Source: an uncultured bacterium
Lineage (GTDB): Bacteria; Babelota; Babeliae; Babelales; Vermiphilaceae
Reading direction: 5' to 3'
NCBI GenBank assembly: GCA_963702025.1
Contig: OY969699.1
Location: forward strand, 32,001 to 96,000
DNA length: 64,000 bases
The position numbers were made by a program, and so were the translations under genes. Shown piece by piece: positions 4,768-39,642 of the stretch; position 1 is the first letter of the stretch, and each line of letters begins with the position of its first letter. The notes beneath the pieces are model-generated. The model had not been told where the DNA came from. It did not search any database and worked only from the letters and a program-made list of their open reading frames with translations.

Positions 4768-4887
4768 AGGGTCGCCATACCTATACATTCCAGGAACCTT
4801 GAAACTGAGATTGATATATGTTTAAGCCACATTCAGATGGTGTTTGCATCATTTTTTAGAATTAAACTATAAGAATTAACTTTTTAA
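4768..4887 (+). pseudogene. Detached, degraded serine-recombinase C-terminal tail (element D end)
   Basis: Translates RVAIPIHSRNLETEIDICLSHIQMVFASFFRIKL*ELTF, which aligns with the tail at 7608-7724. Confidence 0.65.
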
Positions 4888-4968
4888 TACCAAAAAGAGC
4901 CAAAGCGCTTTGCAAATAAATCTAGCCCGTTCTTGCACTCGTATTTTATGCTCCTCAAAGATAGGCTG
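4884..4968 (-). pseudogene. 3' fragment copy of gene 7721-8281
   Basis: QPIFEEHKIRVQE/GLDLFAKRFGSFWY* with a 1-bp insertion, versus QPIFDEHKKRVQEGLDLFAKHFGSFWY*. Confidence 0.8.
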
Positions 4969-4998
4969 GTGTTCATATATTTCCGGCTCTCGTGGTCG

Positions 4999-5553
4999 TT
5001 ACTTTTTCTTTAGTACTTCCGCAAACATCTCTATCATCGCGGTGTTATACACAGGTATGTCCGCCGGCCATCTGCTCGTTACCAAAAGGCCATCTCTAAC
5101 TACAGGCTTATCCACCCATTTTGCTCCCGCATTCTCGAGATCGATTTTAATCGAAGGCCATGAGGTGACAGTTTTTCCTTTTAGGCCACCTGCATTACTT
5201 AGTGTCCACGGCCCATGGCAAATTGCAGCAATTGGCTTTTTAGCATCGATAAATGCTTTAATAAAAGCAATTGCCGAATCGAATCTGCGTAATTTATCAG
5301 GATTGATTACCCCACCCGGAAGATGTAGCGCATCAAAATCATCCGGATTTGCATTATTTAAATCGAGGTCGACAGGAAATTCATCTCTCCATTGGTCATC
5401 AATCCATCCCCTTATTTTTCCATACACAGGAGAAATAAGCACTGTTTTTGCGCCGGCTTCATCTAATGCTTTTCTAGGCTCTGTCATCTCATTTTGTTCA
5501 AAGCCAGTATCGCAAAGGATCGCGACTTTAAGTCCTTCTAATTGTTTTTTCAT
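4999..5553 (-). CDS. PfpI/DJ-1 family type 1 glutamine amidotransferase-like protein
   Basis: GFEQ.E, LPGG..NPD.LR and AAICHGPW motifs. Confidence 0.92.
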   Translation of the reverse strand: MKKQLEGLKVAILCDTGFEQNEMTEPRKALDEAGAKTVLISPVYGKIRGWIDDQWRDEFPVDLDLNNANPDDFDALHLPGGVINPDKLRRFDSAIAFIKAFIDAKKPIAAICHGPWTLSNAGGLKGKTVTSWPSIKIDLENAGAKWVDKPVVRDGLLVTSRWPADIPVYNTAMIEMFAEVLKKK

Positions 5554-5692
5554 GTAAACTCCTCGGTAAATATTTTCTATAGCTTATATATATTTTGAGG
5601 TAAAAAATAAAGAGTTTTTATGAATGGCGCTAAAACGGTGAAGTTGAGTAATTATGTCCCTTAGAAATAGGACATGTCAAATTTAAAAAGAG

Positions 5693-5802
5693 TTGTGTGC
5701 CCGCTAAACATGTTCAGGAACCATGAAATAGAATTCGGCATTAGCTTAAGCCACATTCAAACGGTATTTATAACTTTTGGGATTGAATTGAAAATTCAAT
5801 AA
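5693..5802 (+). pseudogene. Detached serine-recombinase C-terminal tail / att junction (element C end)
   Basis: GTGTGCCCG at 5695-5703 equals 39568-39576; followed by LNMFRNHEIEFGISLSHIQTVFITFGIELKIQ*, homologous to the 7608 tail. Confidence 0.7.
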
Positions 5803-5955: not shown

Positions 5956-6240
5956 CTACTGAAATCTAATCTCCAAATCTTTACCCAAAGCTAGAGCGGC
6001 TCTATAAAGAGTCAAGAGGGTAACTGAATAGTTTTCCGGATTAAGCAAACGCATTAAAGCAGCTCGACTTGTGCCAATCCGTTTTGCCATTTCTGTTTGT
6101 GAGATTTTCTTCTTTTTCATTTCTTTAGTAACTTGTTCAGCTATAACCTTTTTTATAGCAGCAAGCTCAGCTGCTTCTAATGTACCTTCTTCTTTCAAAA
6201 GTTCATCAAAGCTTGATCCAATGTATTTATTCTTTGACAT
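5956..6240 (-). CDS. XRE-family HTH regulator / HigA-like antitoxin
   Basis: IGSSFD.LLKEEG N-terminus; SQTEMAKRIGTSRAAL.RLL HTH. Confidence 0.85.
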   Translation of the reverse strand: MSKNKYIGSSFDELLKEEGTLEAAELAAIKKVIAEQVTKEMKKKKISQTEMAKRIGTSRAALMRLLNPENYSVTLLTLYRAALALGKDLEIRFQ

Positions 6241-6241
6241 T

Positions 6242-6517
6242 TTATTTCTTTAAGTCTCGATAAAAATTTTCATGAGAGCCCAATGCTAGCAAGATTAGTT
6301 CTTGCTTGTGCGCATTATAATCATAAGCAAGCAAAGTAAGTTGATTTACCATTTTAAATTTATACACCTGGACTCCATTTAAATCACCTTTTTTCAAATC
6401 ACCAATAGTAGGATTTTTAATAATTGCCTTTACGGCTTCATCCAATTCTTTTTTTTGGTTTTTATGTAATTTCTTTATTTGCTTCGAAAAGGTTGTAGTT
6501 TGCTGAATATTCATCAT
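6242..6517 (-). CDS. Type II TA RelE/ParE family toxin
   Basis: NP.IGDLKKGDL.GV.VYKF and GSHENFYRDLK motifs. Confidence 0.88.
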   Translation of the reverse strand: MMNIQQTTTFSKQIKKLHKNQKKELDEAVKAIIKNPTIGDLKKGDLNGVQVYKFKMVNQLTLLAYDYNAHKQELILLALGSHENFYRDLKK

Positions 6518-6741
6518 TACTTCTCATCAAAACGATAGGCCTTTAATTTTCCCGCTTCAGCTTCTTCTTGTGCAATTAGAACGTTTTTGATGAATTCATA
6601 ACTTAAATCAGGATTTTCTTCGGCAATTTTCCCTATCCTAGCCCAATGTTCAATTTGCCCTGCAAGAGATCTATTAAGAGCTTTAGATATGATTTTAGCT
6701 TCAGAGACAATATGTTCTGACAATTTAACTGCAGTCGCCAT
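6517..6741 (-). CDS. ParD-like antitoxin
   Basis: MATAVKLS...RSLAGQIEHWARIGKIAEENPDL; directly upstream of the toxin. Confidence 0.85.
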   Translation of the reverse strand: MATAVKLSEHIVSEAKIISKALNRSLAGQIEHWARIGKIAEENPDLSYEFIKNVLIAQEEAEAGKLKAYRFDEK

Positions 6742-6893
6742 TTGTATTCCTCTTAGACTTAGAATTATAGAGCTTAGAATCAATTTATATTATAACCCAT
6801 TTGGTTGCATTTTGAAACCTTATGAAAATTTTTTTGTTGCACCAAGGTGAAAATTTCCTCTTTTCACCAAAGTAATAATTTCCGCTTTTTTGT

Positions 6894-7185
6894 CTACTTA
6901 AATAACCTCCATTTGCCTTCAACTAAGTGCAAAGTTTGTTTTAATGATTGATTCCAAGGATGATTTGCAGCCGGTTTGTGCGGGACGCGATCGATGCATT
7001 TTGGTGCAGCGAGAGGCTTTGGATCGCGTCCATTGCGAAAGTTTAAATATAATCCCTTTAATGAAAGTAAAATTTTGCCATTAAGCAATTGACTAACGGT
7101 AATGCTATTTTTGGGCTGAATTTTTACCGGTTGCATTCGATCTAATTGAAAGATTTCCCCTCCGTATTGAATTGTAAAATCATCG
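6894..7185 (-). pseudogene. C-terminal remnant of an ISNCY/IS1202-like transposase
   Basis: Extending the ORF upstream gives DDFTIQYGGEIFQL..QP..IQPK..ITV...LNG.I.L..KG.YLNF...KPAANHPW. Confidence 0.65.
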
Positions 7186-7724
7186 CTGATTCATTAAACC
7201 AACTGCATTTAGATAAGATTGAATTTCACAACAAACATTATGGCAAGCTCATAAATCAACAACAGCAGATTACCAAAATGCTGGATAATTTATATATCGA
7301 TAAAGTGAAAGGGAGAATTACTGAGAGCGAATATGAAAAATTCTACATTTCATTTTATGATGAAGCGGCAGAAATAAAATCCCAACTTGATAAATTAGGG
7401 GAAGCTCAAGACAACTACTTTATTACCGCAAAATACGTACTAGATCTGGTTAACCGAGCTCACGAATTATTTGAAAGTTCTGAAGTTGAGGAAAAGAGAC
7501 AATTAATCAAGCTTGTACTTCAGAACCTAAGACTTGAAGATGATAAGTTGCTCTGGGACGCTGTTAAACCCTTTGATACACTCTTAAATGTGTCCGATAG
7601 TCAAGGATGGTGTGGCCTGCCTAATGCATTCAGAAACAAAGAAGCAACCATGGGATTCACCTTGCAGCATATCCAGACGATATATTCATCATTTAGAATT
7701 GAACTTCAAGAATTAATTTTTTAA
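7186..7724 (+). pseudogene. C-terminal remnant of a large serine recombinase (element C integrase, joined to a tail)
   Basis: Closely matches the end of 14349-15353 (KMLDNLY.DK.KGRITESEY, SSEVEEKRQL); catalytic domain is missing. Confidence 0.85.
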
Positions 7725-8281
7725 TACCAAAAAGAACCAAAGTGTTTTGCAAACAAGTCTAATCCTTCTTGTACTCTTTTTTTATGCTCATCAAAGATAG
7801 GCTGATATTTATCATATAGGGGTCCACATATTTTTATTCTTTCTTCCATTTCATAGCTGCGATATCCCAGCTTATTGGGATTGGTTTCCAGCTCTTCTAT
7901 TTCGCGCATTTGAGTTTGATAAGTCTTTCTAATCTTTCGGCATTCTTTAAACATCTCTTTTTGAGCTGGACCATCCCAATCTATTGAATTATCTGAAAGC
8001 GCTTTGAATGAATAGACGATTTTATCAAGAATTGAAATCCATTTTTGTAAGCACTGTGCTTCATCTTCTTCTGACATATCATATGGGTTGTTAATATCCT
8101 CAGTCATAGTCATTGGAAAACCGGCGCTAGTTCCCTTCTTATCATATCTGGCGCGATATTTTTTAAAAAGAGGATACAGAACACGCGCTATAGTTTGATC
8201 CATATCCATAAGATCCATCCAGGTTGCTGACACTTTTACTTTATCTTTTCCTTTTTTTGGATATTCGATTAATACTTTCAT
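7721..8281 (-). CDS. Hypothetical, phage-associated-like protein
   Basis: W..ILDKI..SF and EGLDLFAK.F.S.W pattern recalled from phage hypothetical proteins. Confidence 0.55.
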   Translation of the reverse strand: MKVLIEYPKKGKDKVKVSATWMDLMDMDQTIARVLYPLFKKYRARYDKKGTSAGFPMTMTEDINNPYDMSEEDEAQCLQKWISILDKIVYSFKALSDNSIDWDGPAQKEMFKECRKIRKTYQTQMREIEELETNPNKLGYRSYEMEERIKICGPLYDKYQPIFDEHKKRVQEGLDLFAKHFGSFWY

Positions 8282-9401
8282 GCTGTTTTCGTTTTTCTTT
8301 TATATTTTTTTCTGCTAACAATTCTTGCTTTTCCAACTCTGCTTCTATTTCTTTAACCGTTGGTAAACTTCCTTTGAGATCTTTTGGCAATGATTCAACT
8401 ATCTTAGCCTGATAACTTGCAACTCCTATAGGCTTAGAGCTTGCTTGCAGCGCATATTCAACAGTGAGACTATCTTTATCTTTGCAAAGAATAAGACCTA
8501 TTGTTGGCTTATCTCCTGGATGCCGCATTTCATTATCAACTGCTGATAAATAAAAGCCTATCTGACCCGTATCGCGTACATCAAATTCTCTTGCCTTAAG
8601 CTCTACAATAATAAAGCAACGTAATTTAAGATGATAAAATAGAAGATCTATATAATAATCTTTATTGCCGATATGCAAATGGACTTGTCTTCCAATAAAC
8701 GCAAAGCCCTGGCCAAGCTCCAAGAGAAACTTTTGAATATGATCAGTTAATCCTTGCTCCACATCTCTTTCATTATGTTCAGTATGAAGCGTTAAAAAAT
8801 CAAACAAATAGGGATCTTTTAATGATTGATGAGCCATATCAGAATGAGGTTTGGGGAGCTTTACTTCAAAATTGGTAATGGCTTTGCCTTGCCTACCATA
8901 AAGATCGGATTCAATCCAAGATTCAAGCATGCTACGGCTCCAACCATTTTCTATGGCTTTTTGAGCATACCAAAAGCGCACCTTATTCTCTTTCAGTTTT
9001 TCTAGTAATACCGCATTATGACCCCATGGAATTCTAAAAATGGGCAAATTTTCAATTTGTCCCACAGCTGTGGGATTTTTAGAATAGGCAGTAAAGAAAG
9101 CTTTCATTCTAAAGATATTAGATCTTGAAAATCCAGCTATCCCTGGAAAAGCGGCTTGTAGATCATGAGCAAGTTTTTCAACAAAATTTGTTCCCCAGCC
9201 ACTTTTTTCTTGCTTTTCAGTGATAATATTTCCAATTGCCCAATAAAGCATAGTAAGCTCTTGACCGGCAGCAATAGCAGCTTTAATTTGAGATTCTTGA
9301 ATTTTATTCTTAATATCCGCAAGTGTTTGCGCATATTCTTTGGTAGACATTTTTATAACAGTAGCTTTATTTTTCTTTGCAATATTACTTTTCTTTGCCA
9401 T
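8241..9401 (-). CDS. DUF1016/YhcG family PD-(D/E)XK nuclease domain protein
   Basis: LYWAIG, PWGHN, KDPYLFDFL, LLELGQGFAFIGRQ and IDLLFYHLKLRC..VELK motifs. Confidence 0.93.
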   Translation of the reverse strand: MAKKSNIAKKNKATVIKMSTKEYAQTLADIKNKIQESQIKAAIAAGQELTMLYWAIGNIITEKQEKSGWGTNFVEKLAHDLQAAFPGIAGFSRSNIFRMKAFFTAYSKNPTAVGQIENLPIFRIPWGHNAVLLEKLKENKVRFWYAQKAIENGWSRSMLESWIESDLYGRQGKAITNFEVKLPKPHSDMAHQSLKDPYLFDFLTLHTEHNERDVEQGLTDHIQKFLLELGQGFAFIGRQVHLHIGNKDYYIDLLFYHLKLRCFIIVELKAREFDVRDTGQIGFYLSAVDNEMRHPGDKPTIGLILCKDKDSLTVEYALQASSKPIGVASYQAKIVESLPKDLKGSLPTVKEIEAELEKQELLAEKNIKEKRKQHESINRISKKRKR

Positions 9402-9429
9402 TACTAATTTCCCTTTTTTGTATTTCTAT

Positions 9430-9831
9430 TTAAGCAAGCAACTTTTTATACTGATATAATAAATAATCAATTTCTCTTACTTCTTGTTCAAGAATATTTC
9501 GTCGTTCATAGAATTCACCTAATTTCTTAAATTCATCAAAGGGAATAACTCTAGCAGGTTGCACATCTAATGGGACAAGAGCGGCTAAAGGTTGTGATTT
9601 CTCCGCTGCTTCATTCAGCTCTTTGTGTGTTTGCCTAGACAGCTTCTCTAATCTTTCAACCTCTGTCATAAAAAAGACACGAATCGACTCGCAAATGAGT
9701 TCTGATTTATCTTTTTTATTATTTTGTTTAATAGTGGTTGCATAGAGCTGCATTAACATTTCATATTCTTGGCTGCTCAGATAATGCGTTACTTTTACTT
9801 TTTTATCTGCATTATTTTTTTTGATTTCCAT
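9430..9831 (-). CDS. Hypothetical protein, possible ribbon-helix-helix N-terminus
   Basis: KVTHYLS...KSELICESIR; AAGGGA RBS. Confidence 0.55.
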   Translation of the reverse strand: MEIKKNNADKKVKVTHYLSSQEYEMLMQLYATTIKQNNKKDKSELICESIRVFFMTEVERLEKLSRQTHKELNEAAEKSQPLAALVPLDVQPARVIPFDEFKKLGEFYERRNILEQEVREIDYLLYQYKKLLA

Positions 9832-10266
9832 AAGATTCCCTTAATTACAAAAAAAAGACAATTAAAATGGTATTTCCTTGGCCCGCCAATGTCAAATAAA
9901 TTTTTTTTCTAAATTTACCATCATGCCATCAATAGTATTTTAGGAATTAAATAAATGTCTTTGCTTGCCTTTCTCAAAAATCGCATTTATAATCACCCAC
10001 AATAATAAAGCATCCGTCTTCGTTCTCTAAACTACGCCGGACAAGTCATTGCATCAAAGGATGAGCAGCATGAAACACTTCATATACATCAGATTATTAT
10101 ATCTGAGTCAAATCACCCAGGATGGGGAATGTTGCGAGCAGAATCAATTAAGTTGGCTCGGGACTAAATAAGCCCCATCTATCTAAATAAATAATATTAT
10201 TAATTTAAGCTGAATTTCAGCATCGATGATACTGATGAGCAGTATCGGATCGAGCCTGTTCTTCGT

Positions 10267-10305
10267 CCTTCGAGACGCATCTAGCGATGCCCTCAGGATG
10301 AGCGG
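10267..10305. repeat. REP-like palindromic repeat (CTTCGA...CTCAG..GAGCGG family)
   Basis: Related copies at 19566, 39695 and 53561. Confidence 0.6.
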
Positions 10306-10354
10306 AAGGCGCGTTTACTCCCAAGCAAAGTCGAGGGATCAAAAGCGAAGTAGA

Positions 10355-10606
10355 ATGTATATGTTGTTCAAAAATTCTCGTGTGCGCCGCCGATTGGTTG
10401 TGCGCAATCCTATGACTATCAAAATTGCTCTTCCTTTGGATGATCATCGTAAGCTTGAGGCCTTTGTTGCATTGTTGGCACAAATAGATAAGCGCAATAA
10501 AGCAAACGGCAAAGACACCAAATCAAGAGATCCAACCAAAGCTAAAGATGCCTTCTTAAGGCAATATAGAAAAGGCTCACCTTTAAGTGGGCCTATTTTT
10601 TTTTAA
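10355..10606 (+). CDS. Small mobile-element protein (start uncertain, 10355 or 10412)
   Basis: LEAFVALLAQIDKR helix motif; resembles 16796-16966. Confidence 0.45.
   Translation: MYMLFKNSRVRRRLVVRNPMTIKIALPLDDHRKLEAFVALLAQIDKRNKANGKDTKSRDPTKAKDAFLRQYRKGSPLSGPIFF
10570..10604 (+). terminator. Hairpin + U tract; direct repeat copy 1
   Basis: AGGCTCAC-CTTTAA-GTGGGCCT followed by a T run. Confidence 0.6.
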
Positions 10607-10663
10607 CAATTGTTATACTGTTTTAAAAGTTTTACTCAACTCTACATATGTAAAGGAATCATC

Positions 10664-11314
10664 ATGAATAAATATATTGCTCCCCTACTTTTAATTTGTT
10701 GCACTTCAACAAACTTTTGTATGGAATCACTTAAGTATGCATATCCTTTATGCCAAGCAGCAAGTCAAAATGATGTAACAAAAGCACGAGAACTCATAGG
10801 ATTGGGAGCGCATCCTGATAGAATACCTGGCGGTGATGATCGCACACCATTATGGTATTCAGCGGTTAATGGGCATGTTGAAATGATTAAATATTTGCAT
10901 TCTATAGGCGTAGCTCTTAATGGATATTCTGGAGGAGCCACGGCATTATATGCCGCAGCCATGAAAAATCATGTACAAGCAGCTCGCGCTTTAGTTGATG
11001 CGGGTGCAGATGTGAATGCTGGATTTCCTAATGATAAACCAATTTTAGTTGCTGCATCATCAGGAAGTATTGATGTGATAAAATATCTTATTAGTTTGCC
11101 TAAGGTTAACATCAATCAAAGAGATAATGGCAGCTATACCCCTCTTTGGTATGCCTCATTTAAAGGACACTTGACAGTAGTACAAGCTTTAGTTGAAGCA
11201 AAAGCGGATTTAACTATAAAAGGTTTTGATGGTAACACACCATTAAGCATTGCCAAAGAAAAAAAACATGAAGCCATCGCTCAATATTTAGAACAAAAGC
11301 TTCTATCTGAATAG
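10664..11314 (+). CDS. Secreted ankyrin repeat protein
   Basis: Signal peptide; TPLW.SA..GH, TAL.AAA..NH and TPL repeats. Confidence 0.9.
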   Translation: MNKYIAPLLLICCTSTNFCMESLKYAYPLCQAASQNDVTKARELIGLGAHPDRIPGGDDRTPLWYSAVNGHVEMIKYLHSIGVALNGYSGGATALYAAAMKNHVQAARALVDAGADVNAGFPNDKPILVAASSGSIDVIKYLISLPKVNINQRDNGSYTPLWYASFKGHLTVVQALVEAKADLTIKGFDGNTPLSIAKEKKHEAIAQYLEQKLLSE

Positions 11315-11341
11315 CGTTAAAATTTTCTGAAAGTATAAAGA

Positions 11342-11376
11342 AAAAGGCTCACTTTTAAGTGGGCCCTTTCTTTTCT
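11342..11376 (+). terminator. Hairpin + U tract; direct repeat copy 2
   Basis: 23/24 identical to 10570-10593. Confidence 0.65.
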
Positions 11377-11433
11377 TAATAAATAAACTATCCTGCATTA
11401 TTGATCTTATAATCTTCAGCTTGGTATATACAT

Positions 11434-12624
11434 ATGATCGATACGGTAGTTCTTCTTCTTCCTCCAGATACATTCACTATTAGCAATCCAGATAAATTTG
11501 TGCCATCCTACTTCGCCAAGGCTACGAAGGACGGGTCCGCACGAAATAATTCCTATTATATGCATGGTATGCATGCAAAGCAGAACCCCACTAAGAAAGA
11601 ATTAGCCGCTGGCATATATAAGCCCAGGCTAACTTTGTTTTATAGTTTTCCCCACAAACAGGTAATGTTGAAAATCGAACTCTCACTACCCAAGCTCTTT
11701 TATGGCAATAATTTTCAAGAGCTTAAAGGGAAAGATCTGCAGCCTATTTTACAAAAGCTTTCATCAATTTTAGGCCAAATGGAGGTTATTGCGGATCTTA
11801 AAGAGCTGAGCAAAGCTCAAGTAAGTAGCGTTCATTATTCCAAGAATATTGCCCTCACCGATGGATCAACTCCTTATCACTATATTCAAAAGATCAAAGA
11901 GTCGAATATCAAGATGAGCCTTGATGTAAATCAAACCGATTATCGCAATGAAGGCCATAGCTATAAATGGCACTGCAATTCATATGAGGTGGTCTTTTAT
12001 GATAAGATTAAGGATCTTGAAAAAGCAAAACAAAGCGATAAACGAACAATAGAAAAAGATAGTGCATTGCAATTGAATTTATTCCCAAAGTTTGGGCAAC
12101 GTGGATTCGGCGGGCTCACCATGAAACGGAAACTGGAAATCTTACGCATGGAAGTGCGATTAAATAAGCGGCAAAAAATTAAACAGCTTTTCAATAAGCT
12201 GGGCATTAGATCAGACTTATCTTTTAAAAGCCTTTTTAAGCCCGCTATCTCAAAGAAGATCCTGCTTCATTATCTTTATGAATTAGAAAGCAAACGGCCA
12301 GCCCTGCTTGATTATAAAATATCTAGCGATAAGGGATTGCTCACTGATCTTATATTAAATAACCCCGAACTAGGATCAAAAAGAATTTTGCAAATATATG
12401 GGCTGGCCAAAGCACTGCAGATAGTTAATCTGCGTGAATTAAGAGCTATGTTTGCAGGAAGATGGCGCAGCCAAACGAAGCTCCGCAGGAGCGAAGACTG
12501 GTATCGGCTAATGGCTAATGCGAAAGGGGTAAAACTACCGGGAATTCGAAGCCCTTTTGGGGCAATTAGGGATCACATAGCAAAATTTAAGCCTTTAAAG
12601 ATTAATCAAAGCCTAAAGAGCTAA
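11434..12624 (+). CDS. Phage/plasmid replication initiation protein (Rep_trans / gpII-like)
   Basis: MIDTV start, IELSLPKL.YGNN, VFYDK..D and ILRMEVRL motifs. Confidence 0.65.
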   Translation: MIDTVVLLLPPDTFTISNPDKFVPSYFAKATKDGSARNNSYYMHGMHAKQNPTKKELAAGIYKPRLTLFYSFPHKQVMLKIELSLPKLFYGNNFQELKGKDLQPILQKLSSILGQMEVIADLKELSKAQVSSVHYSKNIALTDGSTPYHYIQKIKESNIKMSLDVNQTDYRNEGHSYKWHCNSYEVVFYDKIKDLEKAKQSDKRTIEKDSALQLNLFPKFGQRGFGGLTMKRKLEILRMEVRLNKRQKIKQLFNKLGIRSDLSFKSLFKPAISKKILLHYLYELESKRPALLDYKISSDKGLLTDLILNNPELGSKRILQIYGLAKALQIVNLRELRAMFAGRWRSQTKLRRSEDWYRLMANAKGVKLPGIRSPFGAIRDHIAKFKPLKINQSLKS

Positions 12625-12722
12625 TGGAGCCATTTTCAAGCAGTCTTGACTTTCATTGGAATTATGCCAAACTGAATAATAACATAAAGAATTATACGCC
12701 TAATTGTCTAAATGGAGAATTT

Positions 12723-13595
12723 GTGAAAAAGCTTTTATTTTTTTTACTTATAACAACTTCTTTTACACCAATATATACAATGCAAAAAACTACAATTCCA
12801 TCCTGTATTGGGTATACAATTGCAGGTACCCAACTCTTAAAGGACAGCATAGGCCACTACTTGTCCTGTGATTCTCTGTTAAAACAACCTAAACCAGACA
12901 AAACAGTATCCGACTTTTTAGAATCATATATTCCAGCAACAGGATATACAGAACCTCTTCATATTAGATTATATTTTTGGCTTTCAGGACCCCAAATGGG
13001 ATCATTTAAGGGGAACATTATTATAATATCAAATTATGCGCACAATGATATACGCTCACTGTTAGAAAAACAACAAAAAGTAGCCCCTGTAGCTGAATTA
13101 TCAGAAATTCAAAAACAGCTTGATGGTTATGGTGCTCTATTTCAGCATGAAATAGGCCATCTAAAAAACAACGATGTACACAAAAGAGTATATTTAACAC
13201 TCGCAGTATCACTCAGCTCTTTAGGCATTTCTCATCTTTTAAATCAATGCCTATTTAAAAAGCAAATTACTACGCTGTCGGGCAATGTTGTATGGGGTAT
13301 CTGCATAACTCTTATTAATTTTCTTATCACCAAAGAAATTAATAAAAAACTTGAATTGCAAGCAGATAAAAGCATACCCGCAAATAAAAAAGTACTAGAA
13401 GGTTTTAGAAAATTCATGGCGCAATTGGATGAGCGAGAAAAATCGGTAATAGCAGCAATAGGAAAAAACAATTCTCCCTTTATTGCTCAACTCAAAAGAA
13501 ACACATTGAAATTCATAATTGATTGCTTCGAGGATCATCCCTCGTACGAAGATCGAATAGCCCGCATTGATGAACGACTCGGAAGCATTAAATGA
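12723..13595 (+). CDS. Secreted M48-like zinc metalloprotease
   Basis: HEIGH, ELQAD and HPS..DRI motifs; GTG start after GGAG. Confidence 0.8.
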   Translation: MKKLLFFLLITTSFTPIYTMQKTTIPSCIGYTIAGTQLLKDSIGHYLSCDSLLKQPKPDKTVSDFLESYIPATGYTEPLHIRLYFWLSGPQMGSFKGNIIIISNYAHNDIRSLLEKQQKVAPVAELSEIQKQLDGYGALFQHEIGHLKNNDVHKRVYLTLAVSLSSLGISHLLNQCLFKKQITTLSGNVVWGICITLINFLITKEINKKLELQADKSIPANKKVLEGFRKFMAQLDEREKSVIAAIGKNNSPFIAQLKRNTLKFIIDCFEDHPSYEDRIARIDERLGSIK

Positions 13596-15353: not shown

Positions 15354-15404
15354 AACGATTATAAAAATAAAAAAAATAACATCGTGAAAATAAGTATTGA
15401 CTTG

Positions 15405-16530: not shown

Positions 16531-16542
16531 AAGGGTGTACTT

Positions 16543-29123: not shown

Positions 29124-29137
29124 GCAAATAGTAATTT

Positions 29138-31421: not shown

Positions 31422-32788
31422 CTATTACACCTCAAATGTTGTTTTAGAAATCCAAGCGCCTCATTCCACGCTACTATACTTGCATGAGCATTATCTTGCG
31501 GTATACCCCCCATGGTGCACCATAATTTTACGACAGGATGAAAATACGGGTGAGTAGTACATGCAGGCGCATAAGGCAATTCAAAATAATGCCCTGCACC
31601 TTGAAAGTGAATATGTTTTCTTTCAATCAATGATCGCTTTTGATCCAAGCGTTGAATAATACGATTGGCGTATAAAGTAGAAGGCCATAGTTTATCATCT
31701 TCTCCCGTTAAAAGAAGGAGCGGAGAACGAATATTCTCGACAGGTATTGCAGACTTATCAATGAACTCAGAAAACTTATTCAATCCATATAAATAAAGCT
31801 GTGTAGGTTCCTGGGGATCTTCTACCGTTCCCATATGAAAAGGAACCTTGCCCTCTTTTACTGCGCTTAATAATTCTTCAGTTGTTGGCATTGGCATAAA
31901 TGAAAGAGGCTGATTCTTAAATGTCCATGCAGGTTTATTAAAATTCGGAATTCCACCATACACTAAATTACTGGGAACATACGCAACTATGGCGTTTATT
32001 TCTGTAGGGAATGTTGATCCTAAGAGCATCACCAGTTCACCGCCATAAGACACTCCCCATAATGCAACACAATTTGGATCTACTTGTGGTTGTTTTTTTA
32101 ACCAATGGATTGCATTTTGAAAGTATTCTAATGGAATCTCTTCTAACTTATCTGGCAATCCTGGCATCCCAAAATATCCTAAGGCCAATACTGCATAGCC
32201 ATGTGAAGCCAATAGCTGTGAAATGGTTTTAGAAATCCCGCCACTTGATCCTGTTAGAGTAATAATAGCTGGCCCTGATTTCATATTGTGAGGATAAAAA
32301 AATGTTCCAACTACTCCATCCCGGCTAATGTCTTTTTGTTCAATATCAGATGATATTGATGTGCGAGTAATCTTTTTTTGAGCAAGAAGTTTGTCTTGAG
32401 AAAAAACAGATATTGCTATTTCATCTGGTCTGACAGAAGGCACTGAAGCATTCTCAGCAGGTAACATTGACCAAAATAATCCCATACCATCAACGCCATG
32501 GTATGATCCAGAAATAGGAGCTTGGCAAGCAACATCTATTTTACCTTGGTTATCGGCTTTGAAAACAGCACTTGATTCCCAAACAGAGTTATCTTTAAAC
32601 TGCTGCGAAGTCTTAATCGCAACCTGTTCATGAGGTTTTAGATTTGAAACAGATATTTTAATTGGCATATCTAATAATGCATTTTCAGGCGTTATTTCAA
32701 GCCTTGGCTTACCGTGTAATGAGAAAAATAATGCGCCCGTAAAAACTACGAGGGTGATCATAGAAAATATTATAAAAAACTTCTTCAA
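31418..32788 (-). CDS. Acyl-CoA thioesterase/BAAT family hydrolase
   Basis: GLFWSM, GVSYGGE, D.LWP and GAGH motifs. Confidence 0.88.
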   Translation of the reverse strand: MKKFFIIFSMITLVVFTGALFFSLHGKPRLEITPENALLDMPIKISVSNLKPHEQVAIKTSQQFKDNSVWESSAVFKADNQGKIDVACQAPISGSYHGVDGMGLFWSMLPAENASVPSVRPDEIAISVFSQDKLLAQKKITRTSISSDIEQKDISRDGVVGTFFYPHNMKSGPAIITLTGSSGGISKTISQLLASHGYAVLALGYFGMPGLPDKLEEIPLEYFQNAIHWLKKQPQVDPNCVALWGVSYGGELVMLLGSTFPTEINAIVAYVPSNLVYGGIPNFNKPAWTFKNQPLSFMPMPTTEELLSAVKEGKVPFHMGTVEDPQEPTQLYLYGLNKFSEFIDKSAIPVENIRSPLLLLTGEDDKLWPSTLYANRIIQRLDQKRSLIERKHIHFQGAGHYFELPYAPACTTHPYFHPVVKLWCTMGGIPQDNAHASIVAWNEALGFLKQHLRCNR

Positions 32789-32818
32789 ATTTTATCCTCT
32801 AAAAAATTAAAAAAAATA

Positions 32819-33832
32819 TTACGATGCTTTTCTAACTTCATTCACCATACTCTGTATCGCATCAACAATAATTTTTGGTTGATGTTGTGGAATCATATGC
32901 CCACTATCTTCAGCAATAATATGATGTGATTTAGTAGATTTAGAAGCCAAATCTTTTTGCAATTCACGCCAAGCAGATGTCATTTTATCAGTATCTTCTT
33001 GTGATAATCCAACTTCTTGGGGAGTTGGTGCTTTGCCAGCCGAAATAACTATTAACGGCTTATTCCTAATTTTATTTTCTGCTTGTTTTAATTGATTAAG
33101 GCTTTCTTCCAGATTTTCCGATTCTTCAAGCATAGTCTTTAAATGTTTTGTTTGTTGTTTTTGAGACAAATATAAAGATCGAATATTTTCTGGGAATATT
33201 TCAACCTGTTTTTTAGCTTGCGGCAATGAGTGCAATAAGCGAACAACACCAAGTCGAGAAAGCGTTAATAGAAGTGCTTTTTGTTTTAACAATGCTGCTT
33301 GCTTATTGTTTGCATCTTGCGGCAATCGCTGCAATTGATCCTCATGAGCCGAATCAACCAGCACAATGCCCGCCACTTCATCGGGATATTTACTTGCATA
33401 GAGTTGTGAATTAAGGCCTCCGAATGAATGGCCAACTAAAATATAAGGACCAGAAATGTTGCTTTTTTTCAGAAGTGTTCGCATCTCTTCTACGATAACC
33501 TCGCTGGTTCTTGGTTTAGAACTTGTTTCGCTCCACGCAGAGCCCGCTCTATCTATGCTGCAAACTCTCGAGAACTTTGCAATTTCTGGTTGCACCAAAG
33601 CCCAATCGAGTGAATTGCATCCGATTCCAGCATCGAGAATTACCGTAGGTCCACCGGTTCCCGTATCATTGATATGAAGTTTGTATCCCCCAACATCAAT
33701 CATTTTCCCAACCGGAGGGTATTGATAATTTTCATATTGAGTGCGAACATATTGGTATAAGGCTCCGGTTGCGGGTATAGCGCCCAGCAAAGCACAAGCA
33801 ATTTTAAGTGTTAATAACATCAGTTGCCCCAA
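32819..33832 (-). CDS. Alpha/beta hydrolase
   Basis: GHSFGG and SGH.I motifs. Confidence 0.9.
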   Translation of the reverse strand: MGQLMLLTLKIACALLGAIPATGALYQYVRTQYENYQYPPVGKMIDVGGYKLHINDTGTGGPTVILDAGIGCNSLDWALVQPEIAKFSRVCSIDRAGSAWSETSSKPRTSEVIVEEMRTLLKKSNISGPYILVGHSFGGLNSQLYASKYPDEVAGIVLVDSAHEDQLQRLPQDANNKQAALLKQKALLLTLSRLGVVRLLHSLPQAKKQVEIFPENIRSLYLSQKQQTKHLKTMLEESENLEESLNQLKQAENKIRNKPLIVISAGKAPTPQEVGLSQEDTDKMTSAWRELQKDLASKSTKSHHIIAEDSGHMIPQHQPKIIVDAIQSMVNEVRKAS

Positions 33833-33834
33833 AA

Positions 33835-34383
33835 TTATGGCAATTCATCTTTTTTAACTTTTTCAATGAGCGCTTCAATGAAATCCAACTCGGTTTGGTA
33901 ATGGGCAATGATCAGTTTATGATTTTCATCGATATGCTTAGGCAATTCTATATTTTTCATAGCAAGCGGTAATACTTGATCAGCCGATTTTATAACGAAA
34001 CGCCAGGAATCTGCCCTATGCTGTAAAGCATTGAGCAAATCATCTTTTTTTAGATAATTCATGAATGTAAGCGCTACTTGAAAAGGATCAATCGATGGTT
34101 TTAATTCCAGCCATTGCTTGGTAAGCATAACAAGAAAAGCAGAACTGCCAGCTTTGGTAATTTTATAAATAGTTTTATCTGCTTGATCATCTTTGTTGCG
34201 ATTATCAACAACCTCCAAAAAACCTTCTTCAGCCATTTTTTTTAGGGCAAAATAGATTGATCCATAACTTATATTTGACCATTTATCGGCATTCCATGAT
34301 TCAAGGACCTGCCGCACCTCATAGCCATGCCGTGGTTTCTGGTCATTTAAAATACCTAAAAGTAGGATTCTGATTGCTGACAT
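33835..34383 (-). CDS. PadR family transcriptional regulator
   Basis: HGYEV, GSIY.AL.K and Y.IT..G motifs. Confidence 0.9.
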   Translation of the reverse strand: MSAIRILLLGILNDQKPRHGYEVRQVLESWNADKWSNISYGSIYFALKKMAEEGFLEVVDNRNKDDQADKTIYKITKAGSSAFLVMLTKQWLELKPSIDPFQVALTFMNYLKKDDLLNALQHRADSWRFVIKSADQVLPLAMKNIELPKHIDENHKLIIAHYQTELDFIEALIEKVKKDELP

Positions 34384-34486
34384 TTGGTTAAACCTGCTAT
34401 TAACTTATATTCTATTTAGTATATTATATAGACTATATCAAAAAAGCGTTATTTCAAGACTTTTTAATGAATGTTATAGTATAGAT

Positions 34487-35569
34487 ATGATTATCAAACT
34501 GCTTCTTGGGATTTTGGGCATATATATGGGAAATGGGATTTCTATGGAAAATCAGATAAAACAAATAGAGCGCTATCTCTTATCATCGGTAGAGCAGGGC
34601 CATTTTACCGGTACTGTACTGATAGCCCATCATGGGGAAATCATATTCAACTATGGATATGGGATGGCAACACCTCAGAAGCCCAATGATCAAGATACCG
34701 TTTTTCATATAGCCTCTATAACAAAACAGTTTACGGCTGCAGCTCTTCTTAAACTCTGGCAGGCAGGAAAAGTAGATTTACATATCTCAATTAATGAATA
34801 TCTGCCTAAAGAATATCAGTCAGAGTATTGGAAAAAAGTGACACTGCATCATCTGCTTTCTCATACTTCAGGAATACCTGATTACAATGAAAAATATTAT
34901 GATCCCAAAACGATTGGCTTTGTGTCCTGTGAAATCGAAGCAAAAATGATACAAGAAACGGGACAAAAACAGTTAGAGTTCGAGCCGGGATCAAAATGGG
35001 CATACTGCAATATGGGCTATACTTTGCTTGGCATTATTCTTAAACAGCAAACCGGCAAGCAATATACAGATCTTATTAACGAATATTTTATCAAGCCATT
35101 AAACATGACTTCTACTCGATTTCATGAAGATAATTATACTGTTCACGAAAAAGATGCACTTGGATTTCGATGGGATTTTCAGAACAAAAAATGGGTAGAT
35201 GACGATAGTGAAAAAATTGTGGGAACCATACCCGATGGGGGCATACTTTCAACAGCACACGATTTGTATAAATGGAGTGCTGTTATCGAAGGCAAAAGAC
35301 CCGATATCCTCAGCACAGAAATACTTAAACTTATGACAACACCAGTACCAAATATGAGCACGCCATATGGAGGATATGGATATGGATTGGGAATCGATGA
35401 GTCTTTTGGAACTCGAAAAATTCATCATTCAGGATGGATGATTGGATTTATGTCTGATTTGTGGATGTTTCCAGAAAAGGATCTTGTTATCATTGTTTTG
35501 TGTAATAACACAACAGTAAATAGTGAAAAAATTGCAGAAGAATTAGCAAAAATTATACTCAGCTCATAA
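34487..35569 (+). CDS. Serine hydrolase, beta-lactamase-like
   Basis: SITK, YCN and HSG motifs. Confidence 0.88.
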   Translation: MIIKLLLGILGIYMGNGISMENQIKQIERYLLSSVEQGHFTGTVLIAHHGEIIFNYGYGMATPQKPNDQDTVFHIASITKQFTAAALLKLWQAGKVDLHISINEYLPKEYQSEYWKKVTLHHLLSHTSGIPDYNEKYYDPKTIGFVSCEIEAKMIQETGQKQLEFEPGSKWAYCNMGYTLLGIILKQQTGKQYTDLINEYFIKPLNMTSTRFHEDNYTVHEKDALGFRWDFQNKKWVDDDSEKIVGTIPDGGILSTAHDLYKWSAVIEGKRPDILSTEILKLMTTPVPNMSTPYGGYGYGLGIDESFGTRKIHHSGWMIGFMSDLWMFPEKDLVIIVLCNNTTVNSEKIAEELAKIILSS

Positions 35570-35597
35570 AACTTATAAAAAAATAAAATTTATAATA

Positions 35598-36503
35598 GTG
35601 ATCATGAAAAAAATAGGCCTAATAACCAGTATATTTTTTGCTTACGGACTGCATGCAAACATTTTGCTTGAAAAGCCGAGAGAATTATCTGCAGAACAAA
35701 TAGAAGAGTTGGCTAGCCAATGGCATACCACTTTTACTTGGAATTGGTCATATAAAGGGTTGGCAAAGTTGGCATGTTCATTTGTTTACGAAAATAGTAA
35801 AGCTGGGTTCGCACTAAAATACTTTGGAATCCCATTATATAGTAAAAACTATAGGTTTATTCCCACCATGCAAGAATTGCAGCACTATTTTCAGCCATCA
35901 AATTATTATTTTGACAAGGCACTTGTATACTACAACAGTAATCCTCAGCAGATAAACAAAGAAGCATTATTTACTTTAATTACCAATAAACGATGTATTT
36001 TTTATACCGGGGCCGGTATATCTGCAATGAATGGTATTGCAACAATGGGTTCACTTGAAGAATCGCTTGCTATGGATAAAGGAATAGCACAGTTCTTAAA
36101 AGATGCATGGTCTCATCCTGATAGATTATGTAATGCATTTGCTGATTTCTGCCACAAGGCTATATATAGTAGCCCGACACTGGCCCATTATACTCTGAAA
36201 CGAATAGCACAAGAAAAAGAAGTAGCTATCATTACTGAAAACGTTGATCTTTTACAACATCGTACTGGTATTGAACCGATCTTTTCCGCCTCAGACAAAA
36301 TAGCATTGTTATCACCAAAAGATTGGCAAAAAGTTGATGCAATTATCTGTATTGGTCTAAGTCACGATGATAGAGGTCTTTTAGCAAAATATAGGGATTC
36401 CAATCCTAATGGAATTTTGATCGCTATTGATTTGAAAATACCTACCTATCTTGCTGATTGTGATTATATATGTCTTGGCAATCTACAAGAAATTTTATCT
36501 TGA
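35598..36503 (+). CDS. Sirtuin (Sir2)-like domain protein with signal peptide
   Basis: YTGAGISA, TENVDLL and IGLS motifs. Confidence 0.7.
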   Translation: MIMKKIGLITSIFFAYGLHANILLEKPRELSAEQIEELASQWHTTFTWNWSYKGLAKLACSFVYENSKAGFALKYFGIPLYSKNYRFIPTMQELQHYFQPSNYYFDKALVYYNSNPQQINKEALFTLITNKRCIFYTGAGISAMNGIATMGSLEESLAMDKGIAQFLKDAWSHPDRLCNAFADFCHKAIYSSPTLAHYTLKRIAQEKEVAIITENVDLLQHRTGIEPIFSASDKIALLSPKDWQKVDAIICIGLSHDDRGLLAKYRDSNPNGILIAIDLKIPTYLADCDYICLGNLQEILS

Positions 36504-36533
36504 GTCTTGTTATTTTATTATAAATTTTAAAAA

Positions 36534-36776
36534 TTGATTTTTATGAATATGTATAAAAAATATAGCCCACCTTCTTGGTTTAAATGGATAATGTTTCTTA
36601 CGGTTAATCTTGGCTATTTATTGGGATTCGTACTAATACGAATGTTTTTTGATTATTCTGCTTCATATATTTCATTTGCCGCAGCAATCATTGGTTATTG
36701 GATATCATTTTTCTTGTATCCCTTATTTAGCAAGTGGAACAATAACCGTTTTAACAAAGGAAATCTTATCAAATGA
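36534..36776 (+). CDS. Small membrane protein
   Basis: Two hydrophobic helices; overlaps the next start. Confidence 0.5.
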   Translation: MIFMNMYKKYSPPSWFKWIMFLTVNLGYLLGFVLIRMFFDYSASYISFAAAIIGYWISFFLYPLFSKWNNNRFNKGNLIK

Positions 36777-37513
36777 ACAGGGGATATTTTTTAGCACTTT
36801 GGATTGCTTGTATTATAAGCACCTTTGCCGTGATGCCATTCATTCAAACAGTTGCGCTATTTGCCGGTGCTCAACCAATTGCATTTACTCCGTTAGTTTT
36901 GGCCGTCATGATGGCAGAAAACATCATACTTTATAGCATCGCATTATTTTTTGGTTTAAGATTTGCAGAAAAAATAGGGATTCGCTTTTTATTTCTCGAT
37001 AAAAACACCAATTATCTTAATGATCTTATTAAACCAGGACTTTTCGCAGGAATTGGATGCGCATTAGCAATGCTCGTGGTTGATAAGTTACTGCCAGTAT
37101 CATCTCACGGCATTAATGCCTTAGCAAAATTCACCCCTCCTCTTTACGGTTTATTAGCAGCTCTTTTTGGCGTAATAAATCAAGAAGTGCTCTTATGCCT
37201 TTTAGGAATTTCAGGAATTGCCTTACTTCTAAAGAAATTACTCAAGAACTTAAGTATATCTCGAATTATGGCCATAAGCATTTTCATTGCCTCACTACTT
37301 TTTGGCCTAGCCCATATTCCCACTTTTATTCATGCAATTTCATTTTTAGGATCATCAGTAATTATCCGAATAATAATCCTCAATCTTATCAGTGGAACAA
37401 CATTTGGTTTGCTATTTTGGAAAAAAGGATTTGAAACAGCAGTATTTGCTCATTTTATCGTAGATTTTATTATATATTTCTTAGTGCCTTCATATAATTT
37501 GTTAATAAAATGA
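36773..37513 (+). CDS. CPBP/Abi (CAAX protease-like) membrane protein
   Basis: QEVL, FGLAH and AH..VD motifs. Confidence 0.75.
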   Translation: MNRGYFLALWIACIISTFAVMPFIQTVALFAGAQPIAFTPLVLAVMMAENIILYSIALFFGLRFAEKIGIRFLFLDKNTNYLNDLIKPGLFAGIGCALAMLVVDKLLPVSSHGINALAKFTPPLYGLLAALFGVINQEVLLCLLGISGIALLLKKLLKNLSISRIMAISIFIASLLFGLAHIPTFIHAISFLGSSVIIRIIILNLISGTTFGLLFWKKGFETAVFAHFIVDFIIYFLVPSYNLLIK

Positions 37514-38034
37514 AACATATAAAAAGAATCGCCATCATTGGCAATGCCGGTTCAGGCAAATCAACTTTGTCACAAAAGTTGCATACCATTTTCAAGTTTC
37601 CTATTTACTATCTGGACCAATATTTCTGGAAGCCTGGCTGGGTGAGAACTGAGCCGGATGAATATAAAAGAATGCATGATGCCATATGCGATAAAGAAGA
37701 ATGGATTATTGATGGCATAAATCTGAGAGTAATGGAATATCGCATAAAAAGAGCCGATATGGTTATCTTTTTAGATTTGCCGAGTTATCTATGCCTTTGG
37801 CGTATTTTTAAGCGTACTTTAAAAAATTATGACAAAGAAACGCCCAGTAGTGCAAAGGGTTGCCCCGAAAGATTTAACTGGGCATTTTTGAAATTCTTGA
37901 AATGGGTGTGGGATTTTAAAAAGAAGTACCCAGCTGCAATTAGAGAAATTTTAAAACGGTATCCAGAAAAGAGATTTTATATTTTTAGGTCACAAAATGA
38001 TGTTGACGCGTTCCTTCAGCAGTTAAAAAACTAA
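37510..38034 (+). CDS. FlaR-like / adenylate kinase-related P-loop protein
   Basis: GNAGSGKST, FWKPGW and WIIDG motifs. Confidence 0.85.
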   Translation: MKHIKRIAIIGNAGSGKSTLSQKLHTIFKFPIYYLDQYFWKPGWVRTEPDEYKRMHDAICDKEEWIIDGINLRVMEYRIKRADMVIFLDLPSYLCLWRIFKRTLKNYDKETPSSAKGCPERFNWAFLKFLKWVWDFKKKYPAAIREILKRYPEKRFYIFRSQNDVDAFLQQLKN

Positions 38035-38110
38035 TCTTGCTGCATTTTCTGTGCTATTCTTAAATATGTCAAAAAAAATTAATTCTTAATCAGCAAATTA
38101 GAGTAACAAC

Positions 38111-39580
38111 ATGGAAAAAGCAGTCATCTATGCCCGAGTATCATCCAAAGACCAAGAAGCAGAAGGTTTCTCGATCCCCGCTCAAATAAAAGCACTTCAA
38201 GAATATGCGGCAAAGAATCATCTTATTGTCATCCAAGAGTTTACCGATGTGGAGACTGCAAAAAAGGCAGGCCGCACACAATTTAATAAGATGCTAACAT
38301 TCATTAATGAAAATAAGCATATCAAACACATTTTAGTTGAAAAAACTGATCGCTTACTCAGAAATATACCCGATTATGCCCTTATTGATCGCTTAATACT
38401 CTATTCTGATATTAAAATTCACTTGATTAAAGAAGGCAATATCCTCAGTAAAGATTCCAAATCAAACGATAAGTTTATATTTGGCATAAAAGCACTGATG
38501 GCTAAAAACTTTGTGGATAATCTTTCTGAAGAGGTTAGAAAAGGGATGGCAGAAAAAACTGCCCAGGGTATTTATCCATCAACTGCGCCCTACGGATATG
38601 TAAATGTCCGTGAAAATGGTAAAAGCATAATCAAAGTTGATCCTCTGGCGGCTGCCTATGTGAAACAAATGTTTGAACACTATGCAACCGGCGGTTATTC
38701 ACTAAAAACCTTAAGAAAAAAAATGCTTGATGATGGGATGGTTTATCGCAATGGCAAAAATTTTTATAAAAGCAAGGTAGAAGGTATTCTGAAAAATGAA
38801 TTCTACACCGGCATTTTTATCTATCGCGGCAAGCGATATGATAATGCAACCCATGAGCCAATCATCAGCAAAGAATTATTTCAACGTGTACAGGATGTGA
38901 TGACCAATCCCTATAAAAGTAAATCTAGAAAAGGGCTTTTTCCTTATACCAATCTCATTGCCTGCGGCATGTGTGGTTGCGCATTAACTGCCGAAATTAA
39001 AAAAGAAAAGTACATTTACTATCATTGTTCTGGCTACAAGGGCAACTGCAAACAAGGCACTATACGTCAAGAAGCTATCGAAGCCCGATTTGAATCGATG
39101 CTTGAAGACATGTATATCCCCGATGATATTCAAGAAAGTATTCTGCAGGGGCTACGTAGCAGTTTTAAGGATAAGATTGAGTATCGCGCCAGTCTTGTGG
39201 ATCAACTGCAAAAACAGATCAAGCTTTTACAAAGTAGGATAGATAAGACTTACATCGATAAGATTGACGGAAAAATTTCTGAAGAATACTGGGCCACTCA
39301 CACCCAAGATTGGGCGAATGAAAAAGATATCTTAATGATAAAGCTTGTGGCAGTAGAAAAAGCAGATTCTCATTATTTGGAAAACGCGAATATTATTTTA
39401 GAACTCGCCAAAAAGGCCTCCCAGCTGTTTAAACAGCAAAATGCGGAGCAAAAACGTAGATTGATCAATTTGTTAGTACAGAACTGCTCTTATAAAGATA
39501 AGAACCTTGATGTAGAGCTGAAACCAGTGTTTGGCGAGATCATGAAATCATCAAAAACTAGAAATTGGTGTGCCCGATAG
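38111..39580 (+). CDS. Large serine recombinase (integrase of element A)
   Basis: YARVSS, DRLLRN, CGMC zinc ribbon; the final codons WCAR* are antisense tRNA sequence. Confidence 0.93.
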   Translation: MEKAVIYARVSSKDQEAEGFSIPAQIKALQEYAAKNHLIVIQEFTDVETAKKAGRTQFNKMLTFINENKHIKHILVEKTDRLLRNIPDYALIDRLILYSDIKIHLIKEGNILSKDSKSNDKFIFGIKALMAKNFVDNLSEEVRKGMAEKTAQGIYPSTAPYGYVNVRENGKSIIKVDPLAAAYVKQMFEHYATGGYSLKTLRKKMLDDGMVYRNGKNFYKSKVEGILKNEFYTGIFIYRGKRYDNATHEPIISKELFQRVQDVMTNPYKSKSRKGLFPYTNLIACGMCGCALTAEIKKEKYIYYHCSGYKGNCKQGTIRQEAIEARFESMLEDMYIPDDIQESILQGLRSSFKDKIEYRASLVDQLQKQIKLLQSRIDKTYIDKIDGKISEEYWATHTQDWANEKDILMIKLVAVEKADSHYLENANIILELAKKASQLFKQQNAEQKRRLINLLVQNCSYKDKNLDVELKPVFGEIMKSSKTRNWCAR

Positions 39581-39642
39581 GATTCGAACCTATGACCTAC
39601 GGATTAGAAATCCGTTGCTCTATCCAGCTGAGCTACGGGCAC
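39566..39642 (-). tRNA. tRNA-Arg(TCT)
   Basis: GTGCCCGTAGCTCAGCTGGATAGAGC-ACGGA TTTCTAA TCCGT-GGTTCGAATCC-CGGGCACACCA; CCA is encoded. Confidence 0.97.

Follow-up and report, generated by a model that had tools for sequence, protein, structure and literature searches.

Stacked islands at a tRNA-Arg gene of a Babelota genome very probably carry their attachment sites inside serine integrase genes and hand over a C-terminal tail at insertion

The 64,000-bp stretch of DNA analysed here (the window, G000:C1:32001-96000) comes from a source genome, G000, of 1.6 Mb in one contig, and it raises the question of why three recombinase genes in a row in front of a tRNA-Arg(TCT) gene should all reach the same dipeptide at the point where their sequences part. 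As the original prediction had noticed, TGGTGT is read in frame as tryptophan-cysteine (W-C) at the ends of all three integrase bodies, at 7608, 15264 and 39566. The integrase adjacent to the tRNA gene (integrase A) then runs into the tRNA 3' end and stops at once (WCAR*), while the other two continue past TGGTGT into tails, of 29 residues in integrase B and 38 in integrase C. The region 4768-39571 is confirmed to be a stack of islands, at least three elements deep, at the CCA end of this tRNA gene, which is the sole one of the window (Table 1). It is very probable, judging from the sequences, that the attachment (att) site lies inside the integrase gene (int) and that a tail is handed over at insertion. 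As to what this serves, the explanation that we consider best, with some reservation, is that the att site lies across the last codons, that a short int stands beside the tRNA and that the conserved tail at the far end is probably a degradation tag of the free form.

The integrases belong to the serine and not to the tyrosine recombinases according to Pfam: integrase A shows PF00239, PF07508 and PF13408 (Resolvase, Recombinase and zinc ribbon, in this order) above the cut-off, and residues R9, S11, D80, R81 and R84 are invariant in 19 sequences. A model of the homologue P0024 has the fold of large serine recombinases, matching 6dnw_A with Z 13.8 (rmsd 3.7, 213 aligned) and 3guv with Z 14.3 (rmsd 2.9, 125 aligned). 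The body tree, from which three frameshifted rows were excluded, consists of three well supported clades, A, B and Q. Since the att site spans codons 486-487, past every domain, the integrated enzyme retains all its domains. The expectation that each insertion truncates its own integrase and creates chimeras thus stands as far as the loss of the tail is concerned; the enzyme is left with every domain, however, and both chimeras of the window, integrase B and integrase C, sit on broken genes. A scan for promoters and terminators at integrase A gave results at the level of chance.

The stack has four layers and two integrase clades. Over the last 140 residues, bodies B and C are 66% identical, whereas A shares 26% with either of them, in line with the earlier description of B and C as alike and of A as divergent. 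The elements probably arrived in the order E, C, B, A. Two orphan tails, at 5692-5802 and 4768-4872, had been pointed out before, the latter with a frame that we find to end at about 4872, and their homology to the tail at 7608 was recovered both with tblastn (E 1e-6 and 8e-4 against the genome) and with a hidden Markov model (HMM; E 2e-16 and 2e-9). What did not hold is the 9-bp match to the tRNA end at 5693. Compared with the orthologous junction in genome G005, the window copy lacks the TGG and one further base, so that the match is explained by decay and a core of only 5-6 bases is to be expected. The tail at 5692-5802 is 77% identical to that of G005 and body C is 80% identical to the corresponding body. 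The segment 5640-5692 was considered as the original chromosomal flank and rejected, because the adjoining PfpI gene is mobile cargo.

A homologue of the integrase is present in 33 of the 61 genomes searched, and a convergent tRNA 3' end terminates all of the 20 best relative loci. Close homologues of integrase A carry names from Babeliales, Chromulinivorax and Dependentiae; the host therefore most likely belongs to this group, whose members live in protists. Examination of 43 integrase loci (39 from relatives and four from G000) yielded 29 integrase-tail pairs. Among the 14 loci dropped, L033, L035, L049 and L051 had tails found by HMM but lacked either a start at TGG or a tRNA call, and the remaining ten had no tail, four of them on contigs ending nearby. 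Element boundaries at a core of the TGGTGT type had been predicted, and a TGG-N core was found in 29 of the 43 loci. The tail also segregates with the next integrase toward the tRNA, as anticipated: the class of its nearest neighbour was that of the assigned body in 28 of 29 pairs, and the Mantel correlation between body and tail gave a rho of 0.50 (p 0.0002), with 0.56 (p 0.009) within class A and 0.34 (p 0.058) within class B. The same geometry occurs at six tRNA types within the host group. In G000 itself, two further integrases of this type end in tRNA-Gln and tRNA-Asp; for the tRNA-Asp element an orphan tail lies 7,478 bp off (region C1:1238931-1246408), with the tRNA-Asp core at its start and 58% identity to the 7608 tail, and for the tRNA-Gln element no far tail was found within 74 kb. 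Genome G050 holds the same kind of chimera made of other classes. Of 120 A-class homologues, the end derives from a tRNA in 95, and 11 have a real tail by hand calling, one of which is of class B. The 120 B-class homologues comprise 100 with tRNA sequence at the end and about 10 with tails of mixed types, read from proteins without contigs, in which a circle is indistinguishable from a stack.

Deeper stacks were also seen, with six A-class tails at one tRNA-Arg gene in G020 (L025:10425-18740, L066:1749-4229) and four tails in G050 (L030:515, L031:11837-17241). Relics without an integrase, composed of a tail and one or two genes, occur at the same tRNA-Arg in G006 (L123:1717-2242) and G003 (L121:1879-3513), and the helix-turn-helix (HTH) gene of the G006 relic is 92% identical to window 5956-6240.

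The repeat that bounds the elements begins at the T of TGG and is 6-10 bases long in the 29 pairs used, and the tail at the far end opens with the last bases of the local tRNA. Only the 13 B-class tails found by HMM, with no DNA filter, test this match independently. It exceeds what is expected by chance, since bases 4-6 agree with the local tRNA in all 13, while shuffled sets averaged 6.2 and attained 13 in 5 of 20,000 cases. When body and tail arms were rejoined, there were 5.25 palindromic matches of 12 around bases 5-6, compared to 2.9-3.75 at three other junctions (Wilcoxon p<0.004 for 28 elements, which are related, so that the p-values overstate the significance). This symmetry is clear in class B and weaker in class A, and the rejoined site of the G000 tRNA-Asp element contains a perfect 7-bp inverted repeat. 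Against bases 5-6 as the sole centre, the A-class symmetry amounts to 10.2 of 26 at bases 1-2 versus 9.8 at bases 5-6. We preferred bases 5-6 because of the B-class repeat and of junctions lacking TGG: at the far junctions of G001 and G006 (whose tRNA gene encodes no CCA) the TGG is absent and the TGT retained, as expected if the first core bases are derived from the host. We infer that the tRNA is cut at positions 71-72 and that the element provides the discriminator and the CCA, which would explain why Trp486 is invariant.

In genome G040, six att junctions 700-850 bp apart form a stack at a tRNA-Asp gene (L041:1547-5500, corresponding to G040:C8:34346-38300). Each of the five intervals contains an apparent small toxin-antitoxin gene pair, as judged by eye, and conservation of the tail is limited to its first ~40 bases; the locus looks like an integron-like cassette array on the att site of this integrase.

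If the tail is lost at insertion, a free form with the complete gene should exist. In 40 viral contigs inspected by eye, the integrase ends in sequence antisense to a tRNA or a transfer-messenger RNA (tmRNA) in 14 and has a tail without a tRNA in 17, one being unclear and eight cut or partial. In the three viral contigs checked on both sides (L083, L099 and L103), body and tail lie between the early genes and the lysis module (endolysin) or the phage tail genes; this appears to be the layout of an unintegrated phage and indicates that the free long form exists. Both forms share the core in the close pairs L096/L097, L089/L091 and L083/L087. Among homologous proteins, P0024, P0004 and P0149 are natural long forms. 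In a set of 80 genome loci drawn from many phyla, 76 integrase ends were scored, and 56 of these run into a convergent tRNA or tmRNA gene, 11 types being represented; the tmRNA is overlapped by four distant homologues, and far tails were seen by eye in loci of Micavibrio, Terriglobia and Gastranaerophilales. Of 150 family representatives, 84 show the antisense-tRNA motif and 18 stop at once. A close tail-bearing homologue was absent from annotated phages (best 29%) and plasmids (best 35%). Cores, tail class and tail-carrying phage contigs agree with the predicted course of events, in which attP would lie inside int, insertion would take place at the tRNA end and the tail would pass to the previous resident.

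Several phages with this integrase encode a reverse transcriptase near their tail genes (L083:13808-14953, L103:9797-10774, L095:7218-8018), and these enzymes possibly belong to diversity-generating retroelements.

In order to be more than a leftover of the att site, the tail should be maintained as a protein. The integrase frame is open for 26-48 codons in all 29 tails, which is partly a selection effect, while of the other two frames one is open for at least 25 codons in 3 of the 29 and the other in none. Beyond the att arm, the ratio of nonsynonymous to synonymous differences (pN/pS) is 0.41, versus 1.22 and 1.46 in the shifted frames (34 non-independent B-class pairs), and third codon positions are less conserved; the first ~10 codons of the tail are constrained as DNA as well. 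Across 20 B-class tails, conservation is at least 90% at residues L4, F8, L19 and I22. In an ungapped comparison, conservation is ~0.3 after ~48 bases in the six integrase-less cassettes of G040 and 0.5-0.7 up to ~84 bases in elements from different genera. In the AlphaFold2 model of the natural protein P0024, the tail forms two helices (residues 486-495 and 500-512) with a predicted local distance difference test score (pLDDT) of 69-84. By these measures, the tail appears to be selected as a protein.

That it may serve as a tag is suggested by its end. Among the family representatives, a C-terminus made of a nonpolar residue and alanine was found in 13 of 26 tails, called by hand with the C-terminal ends visible to the caller, versus 1 of 118 other ends; the frequency in the open reading frames of G000 is 3.1%. 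The same end is present in 13 of the 17 tail-bearing viral contigs, several of which are close kin, and in 9 of 20 A-class tails. In the host group, most tmRNA tags terminate in -FA, -YA, -AA, -LA or -CA, as A-class tails do, and the A tail of the window ends in -ACA, as does the tmRNA tag of G007. Precedents are found in two reports which, like most of those compared further below, were available as excerpts: in the repressor of phage BPs, removal of a C-terminal proteolysis tag by integration is proven (PMC3694055), and in Mesoplasma, where ClpXP is absent, Lon degrades ssrA-tagged proteins (PMC8138137).

We propose the following sequence of events. The integrase would cut the tRNA gene at positions 71-72 and the element would restore the last four bases (discriminator and CCA), leaving the tRNA whole. 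The newcomer would thereby come to lie between the tRNA and the previous integrase, and a tail of 27-38 residues would be stripped from the new enzyme and fused to the gene of the previous resident. On the circle, a long, tagged integrase would be made and destroyed by a protease of the host, which would be Lon or FtsH in the present case and ClpXP elsewhere, and the short life of this free form would limit re-insertion after excision. The integrated copy would give an untagged, stable enzyme with all its domains, awaiting a directionality factor, while the displaced resident would be tagged again by the tail of the newcomer.

Several observations weigh against this proposal. None of the 16 B-class and of the 3 Q-class tails has the nonpolar-alanine end, although B tails are conserved, and the two modelled helices are more than a bare tag requires. 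The gene clpX was found in none of the 31 genomes searched and clpP was not convincingly found in G000; the classical reader of ssrA-like tags is therefore missing in the host group, and ClpXP was rejected as the reader there. The core match of A- and Q-class tails is circular, since these and two B tails were selected with a filter for the tRNA core, the tails of the representatives were not called blind, and 14 of the 43 loci gave no usable integrase-tail pair. Finally, no circle of the window's own elements was seen in public data, which are uninformative either way: the best run contained 0.16 of the words, no RNA run was listed as containing them, and the contigs that matched 30000-41000 were short pieces, none of which had a joint.

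G000 has two lon genes and, with no clpX and no convincing clpP, its trans-translation products may go to Lon. It also has two full tmRNA genes 10 kb apart (G000:C1:182479-182838 and 192053-192477, L148), both above 140 bits. Two tmRNA genes are likewise present in G002, G003, G004, G011 and G013, and the predicted tag lengths differ greatly.

A different role for the tail, which we hold to be unlikely as its principal one, is that of a structural part of the enzyme, with helices that would pack on the zinc ribbon or coiled coil and be needed to pair attP with attB, so that the long form would integrate and the short form would be weak or biased to excision. The two predicted helices, which lie beyond the range to which most solved integrases align (up to residues 473-487), the conservation of the internal residues of B-class tails and the co-variation of tails with their own bodies are all in agreement with this idea, as is the lower activity reported for the prophage form of the Mx8 integrase (PMC4701971, excerpt). 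It leaves the nonpolar-alanine ends unexplained, however, and intact chimeras with foreign tails do occur (P0083, P0153, P0194, P0210 and P0230); moreover, part of the conservation, in the first ~10 codons, is also a constraint on DNA. For these reasons we put the tag first and a structural part in directionality second, and both roles may hold in different classes. It is improbable that the tail is just a by-product, that is, that the overlap of attP with the gene end only compacts the module, the tail carries the frame to a stop and both forms behave alike. Integrated ends range freely from 1 to more than 50 residues, so the enzyme tolerates many C-termini, and every domain ends before the cut; nevertheless, the pN/pS and third-position pattern beyond the att arm, and the longer conservation in cross-genus tails than in the G040 cassettes, speak against a mere filler. 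Ordinary duplication and decay of a single integrase gene, with no successive site-specific insertions, would suit the relatedness of B and C and the degenerate relics at 4768 and 5692 but is hardly credible, as an A-class tail sits on body B despite the distance of A from B and C, the geometry is repeated at six tRNA types and in the G000 tRNA-Asp element, and core pairs, tail co-segregation and viral contigs already contradict it.

Extending the tag hypothesis, we tentatively suggest, although the odds are somewhat against so broad a scheme, that serine integrases of one clade, which crosses phyla, recognise nearly every tRNA by its CCA end, and that their recombination doubles as a proteolytic switch, an ssrA-like tag tuned to the host (for Lon here) being taken off at insertion. 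Newcomers would tag again and silence the displaced integrase, and the stack would be a self-ordering queue from which only the newest element leaves unaided.

Parts of this design are shared with other systems. In the canonical large serine integrases (A118/LI, Bxb1, phiC31 and TP901-1) attP lies outside int; the integrases described here are like them in domain order, catalytic residues, fold and a short pseudo-palindromic attP. The tyrosine integrase of mycobacteriophage BPs keeps its own tag. In BPs, a C-terminal proteolysis tag located past attP is lost at integration, and a loss of this kind is predicted for the present elements; they differ in that attP lies in int instead of the repressor gene, so that the integrase itself would lose the tag (PMC3694055). 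A close parallel is DsiB of the Dehalococcoides ssrA islands, a large serine recombinase whose gene always overlaps att at its 3' end and which occurs in tandem islands (McMurdie et al. 2011, PMC3146451). Its authors proposed that it is fully functional only in the circular form or when it lies downstream of another island, a neighbour from which it receives the 3' fragment; they reported divergent C-termini, and the excerpted text shows no conserved tail (PMC3146451). Instead of a tmRNA target and a 20-bp repeat, we find tRNA CCA ends, a core of 6-10 bp and a conserved, class-specific tail, and instead of the six-gene module of the dsiB islands, no Pfam match to dsiA, parB or mom among the 45 window proteins scanned. 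In the streptococcal integrative and conjugative elements (ICEs) inserted at rumA, att also lies in the gene of the serine integrase, and integration gives the C-terminus a different length and sequence (Ambroset et al. 2016, PMC4701971). Those ICEs are conjugative and target a protein gene, whereas the target here is a tRNA and no conjugation family was found among the 45 proteins; the excerpt of that account mentions no tail stack or tag (PMC4701971). In the Myxococcus phage Mx8, attP lies within intP and integration replaces the C-terminus (112 residues by 13) and alters activity, but IntP is a tyrosine recombinase and the piece exchanged is much larger (PMC6070905, PMC4701971). The SSV1-type suicidal integrases share an att inside int and chimeras from several integrated elements; these archaeal tyrosine enzymes are split into inactive halves (PMC8371274), while here the cut falls past the last domain, so that the proposed likeness to SSV1 partitioning does not extend to the mechanism.

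Going by the excerpts, an att site within a serine integrase gene is thus already known from dsiB and the rumA ICEs, and a lack of precedent for such a design, which the original prediction had called unfamiliar, is not supported. Conserved class-specific tails at tRNA CCA ends were not found described: a literature search, outside which most subscription journals fell, returned no tRNA-CCA-targeting serine integrase clade with a conserved, class-specific or tag-like tail. The Islander paper of 2015 states that tRNA genes were not among the known targets of serine integrases (PMC4383910), and one case at tRNA-Met has been predicted in a Paracoccus phage (PMC6536676). As island finders assume no serine integrases at tRNAs, and a 6-bp core at the tRNA extremity is below the 7-base seed of Islander, elements of this kind are probably missed or given wrong bounds. 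Since annotated proteins represent the short form, those who mine such elements for genome-engineering tools would obtain a clone that lacks the natural tail. Should the tail be a tag or have a part in directionality, the two natural forms offer a ready comparison for the control of serine integrases, testable in cultured hosts of the Sphingomonas group.

Table 1. Features of the island stack, listed from the tRNA gene outward (positions in the window)
Feature	Position	Strand	Basis
tRNA-Arg(TCT), target; its CCA end is the integration site	39566..39642	-	ARAGORN
6-bp att core, junction of integrase A body and tRNA; presumed crossover 39570-39571 = tRNA positions 71-72	39566..39571	+	core pairs, far junctions of relatives without TGG
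Integrase A, 489 residues; intact large serine recombinase in its short, integrated form	38111..39580	+	Pfam, catalytic residues
Element A, 24,302 bp between cores; HTH + IrrE-type pair, primase-DUF3987, cargo enzymes	15270..39571	+	
att core + A-class tail, 29 residues, ends -ACA; probably integrase A's own tail, now on body B	15264..15353	+	nearest tails of class A; intact A-class proteins with such tails, e.g. P0024
XRE-type HTH + IrrE/ImmA-like metallopeptidase, element A	15454..16490	+	
Toprim primase-DUF3987 fusion, replication gene of element A	17062..19455	+	
Integrase B body, frameshift near codon 174 (about 14335)	13819..15263	+	
Element B, 7,656 bp between cores	7614..15269	+	
Likely rolling-circle initiator (Phage_CRI-like) of element B	11434..12624	+	feature score 0.98, lead only
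att core + B-class tail, 38 residues; probably integrase B's own tail, now on body C	7608..7724	+	
Integrase C remnant, last ~145 codons; 80-85% identity to the integrases that G005 and G001 have at this tRNA	7182..7607	+	
ParD-like, ParE-like and HTH genes within relic C	5956..6783	-	Pfam; HTH 92% identical in G006 relic
Decayed att core + B-class tail of element C	5692..5802	+	
PfpI/DJ-1 cargo gene, relic E; copies with 91-94% identity within or next to three other stacks	4999..5553	-	
Oldest relic tail (to about 4872) + remnant homologous to 7686-7817 (83% over 133 bp)	4768..4980	+	

With its primase-DUF3987 fusion and its HTH and IrrE-type pair, element A resembles the layout of a phage satellite. 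None of the curated resistance cut-offs is reached by its APH-like and beta-lactamase-like cargo genes. In B-class elements, homologues of the likely rolling-circle initiator were found at 20 loci, Phage_CRI-like by features only. The stretch 20280-21814 of the window (ORF 217 and an APH(6)-like gene) is 83% identical to a stretch in the tRNA-Gln element of G004, which points to exchange of cargo between integrase classes.

Two tandem genes of the ankyrin plus RING type adjoin the tRNA gene (41511-44745), with cysteine-rich patterns that look like RING-between-RING by eye; they are conserved in G002, G003 and G006, and one Ank-RING gene lies within element A (23805-24638). These genes plausibly encode ubiquitin ligases directed at the host. 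On the chromosomal side of the stack, at 427-3129 and upstream, there are tandem beta-propeller paralogues, one pair of which is 81% identical, and in G005, G006 and G007 the stack is likewise flanked by such paralogues on this side.

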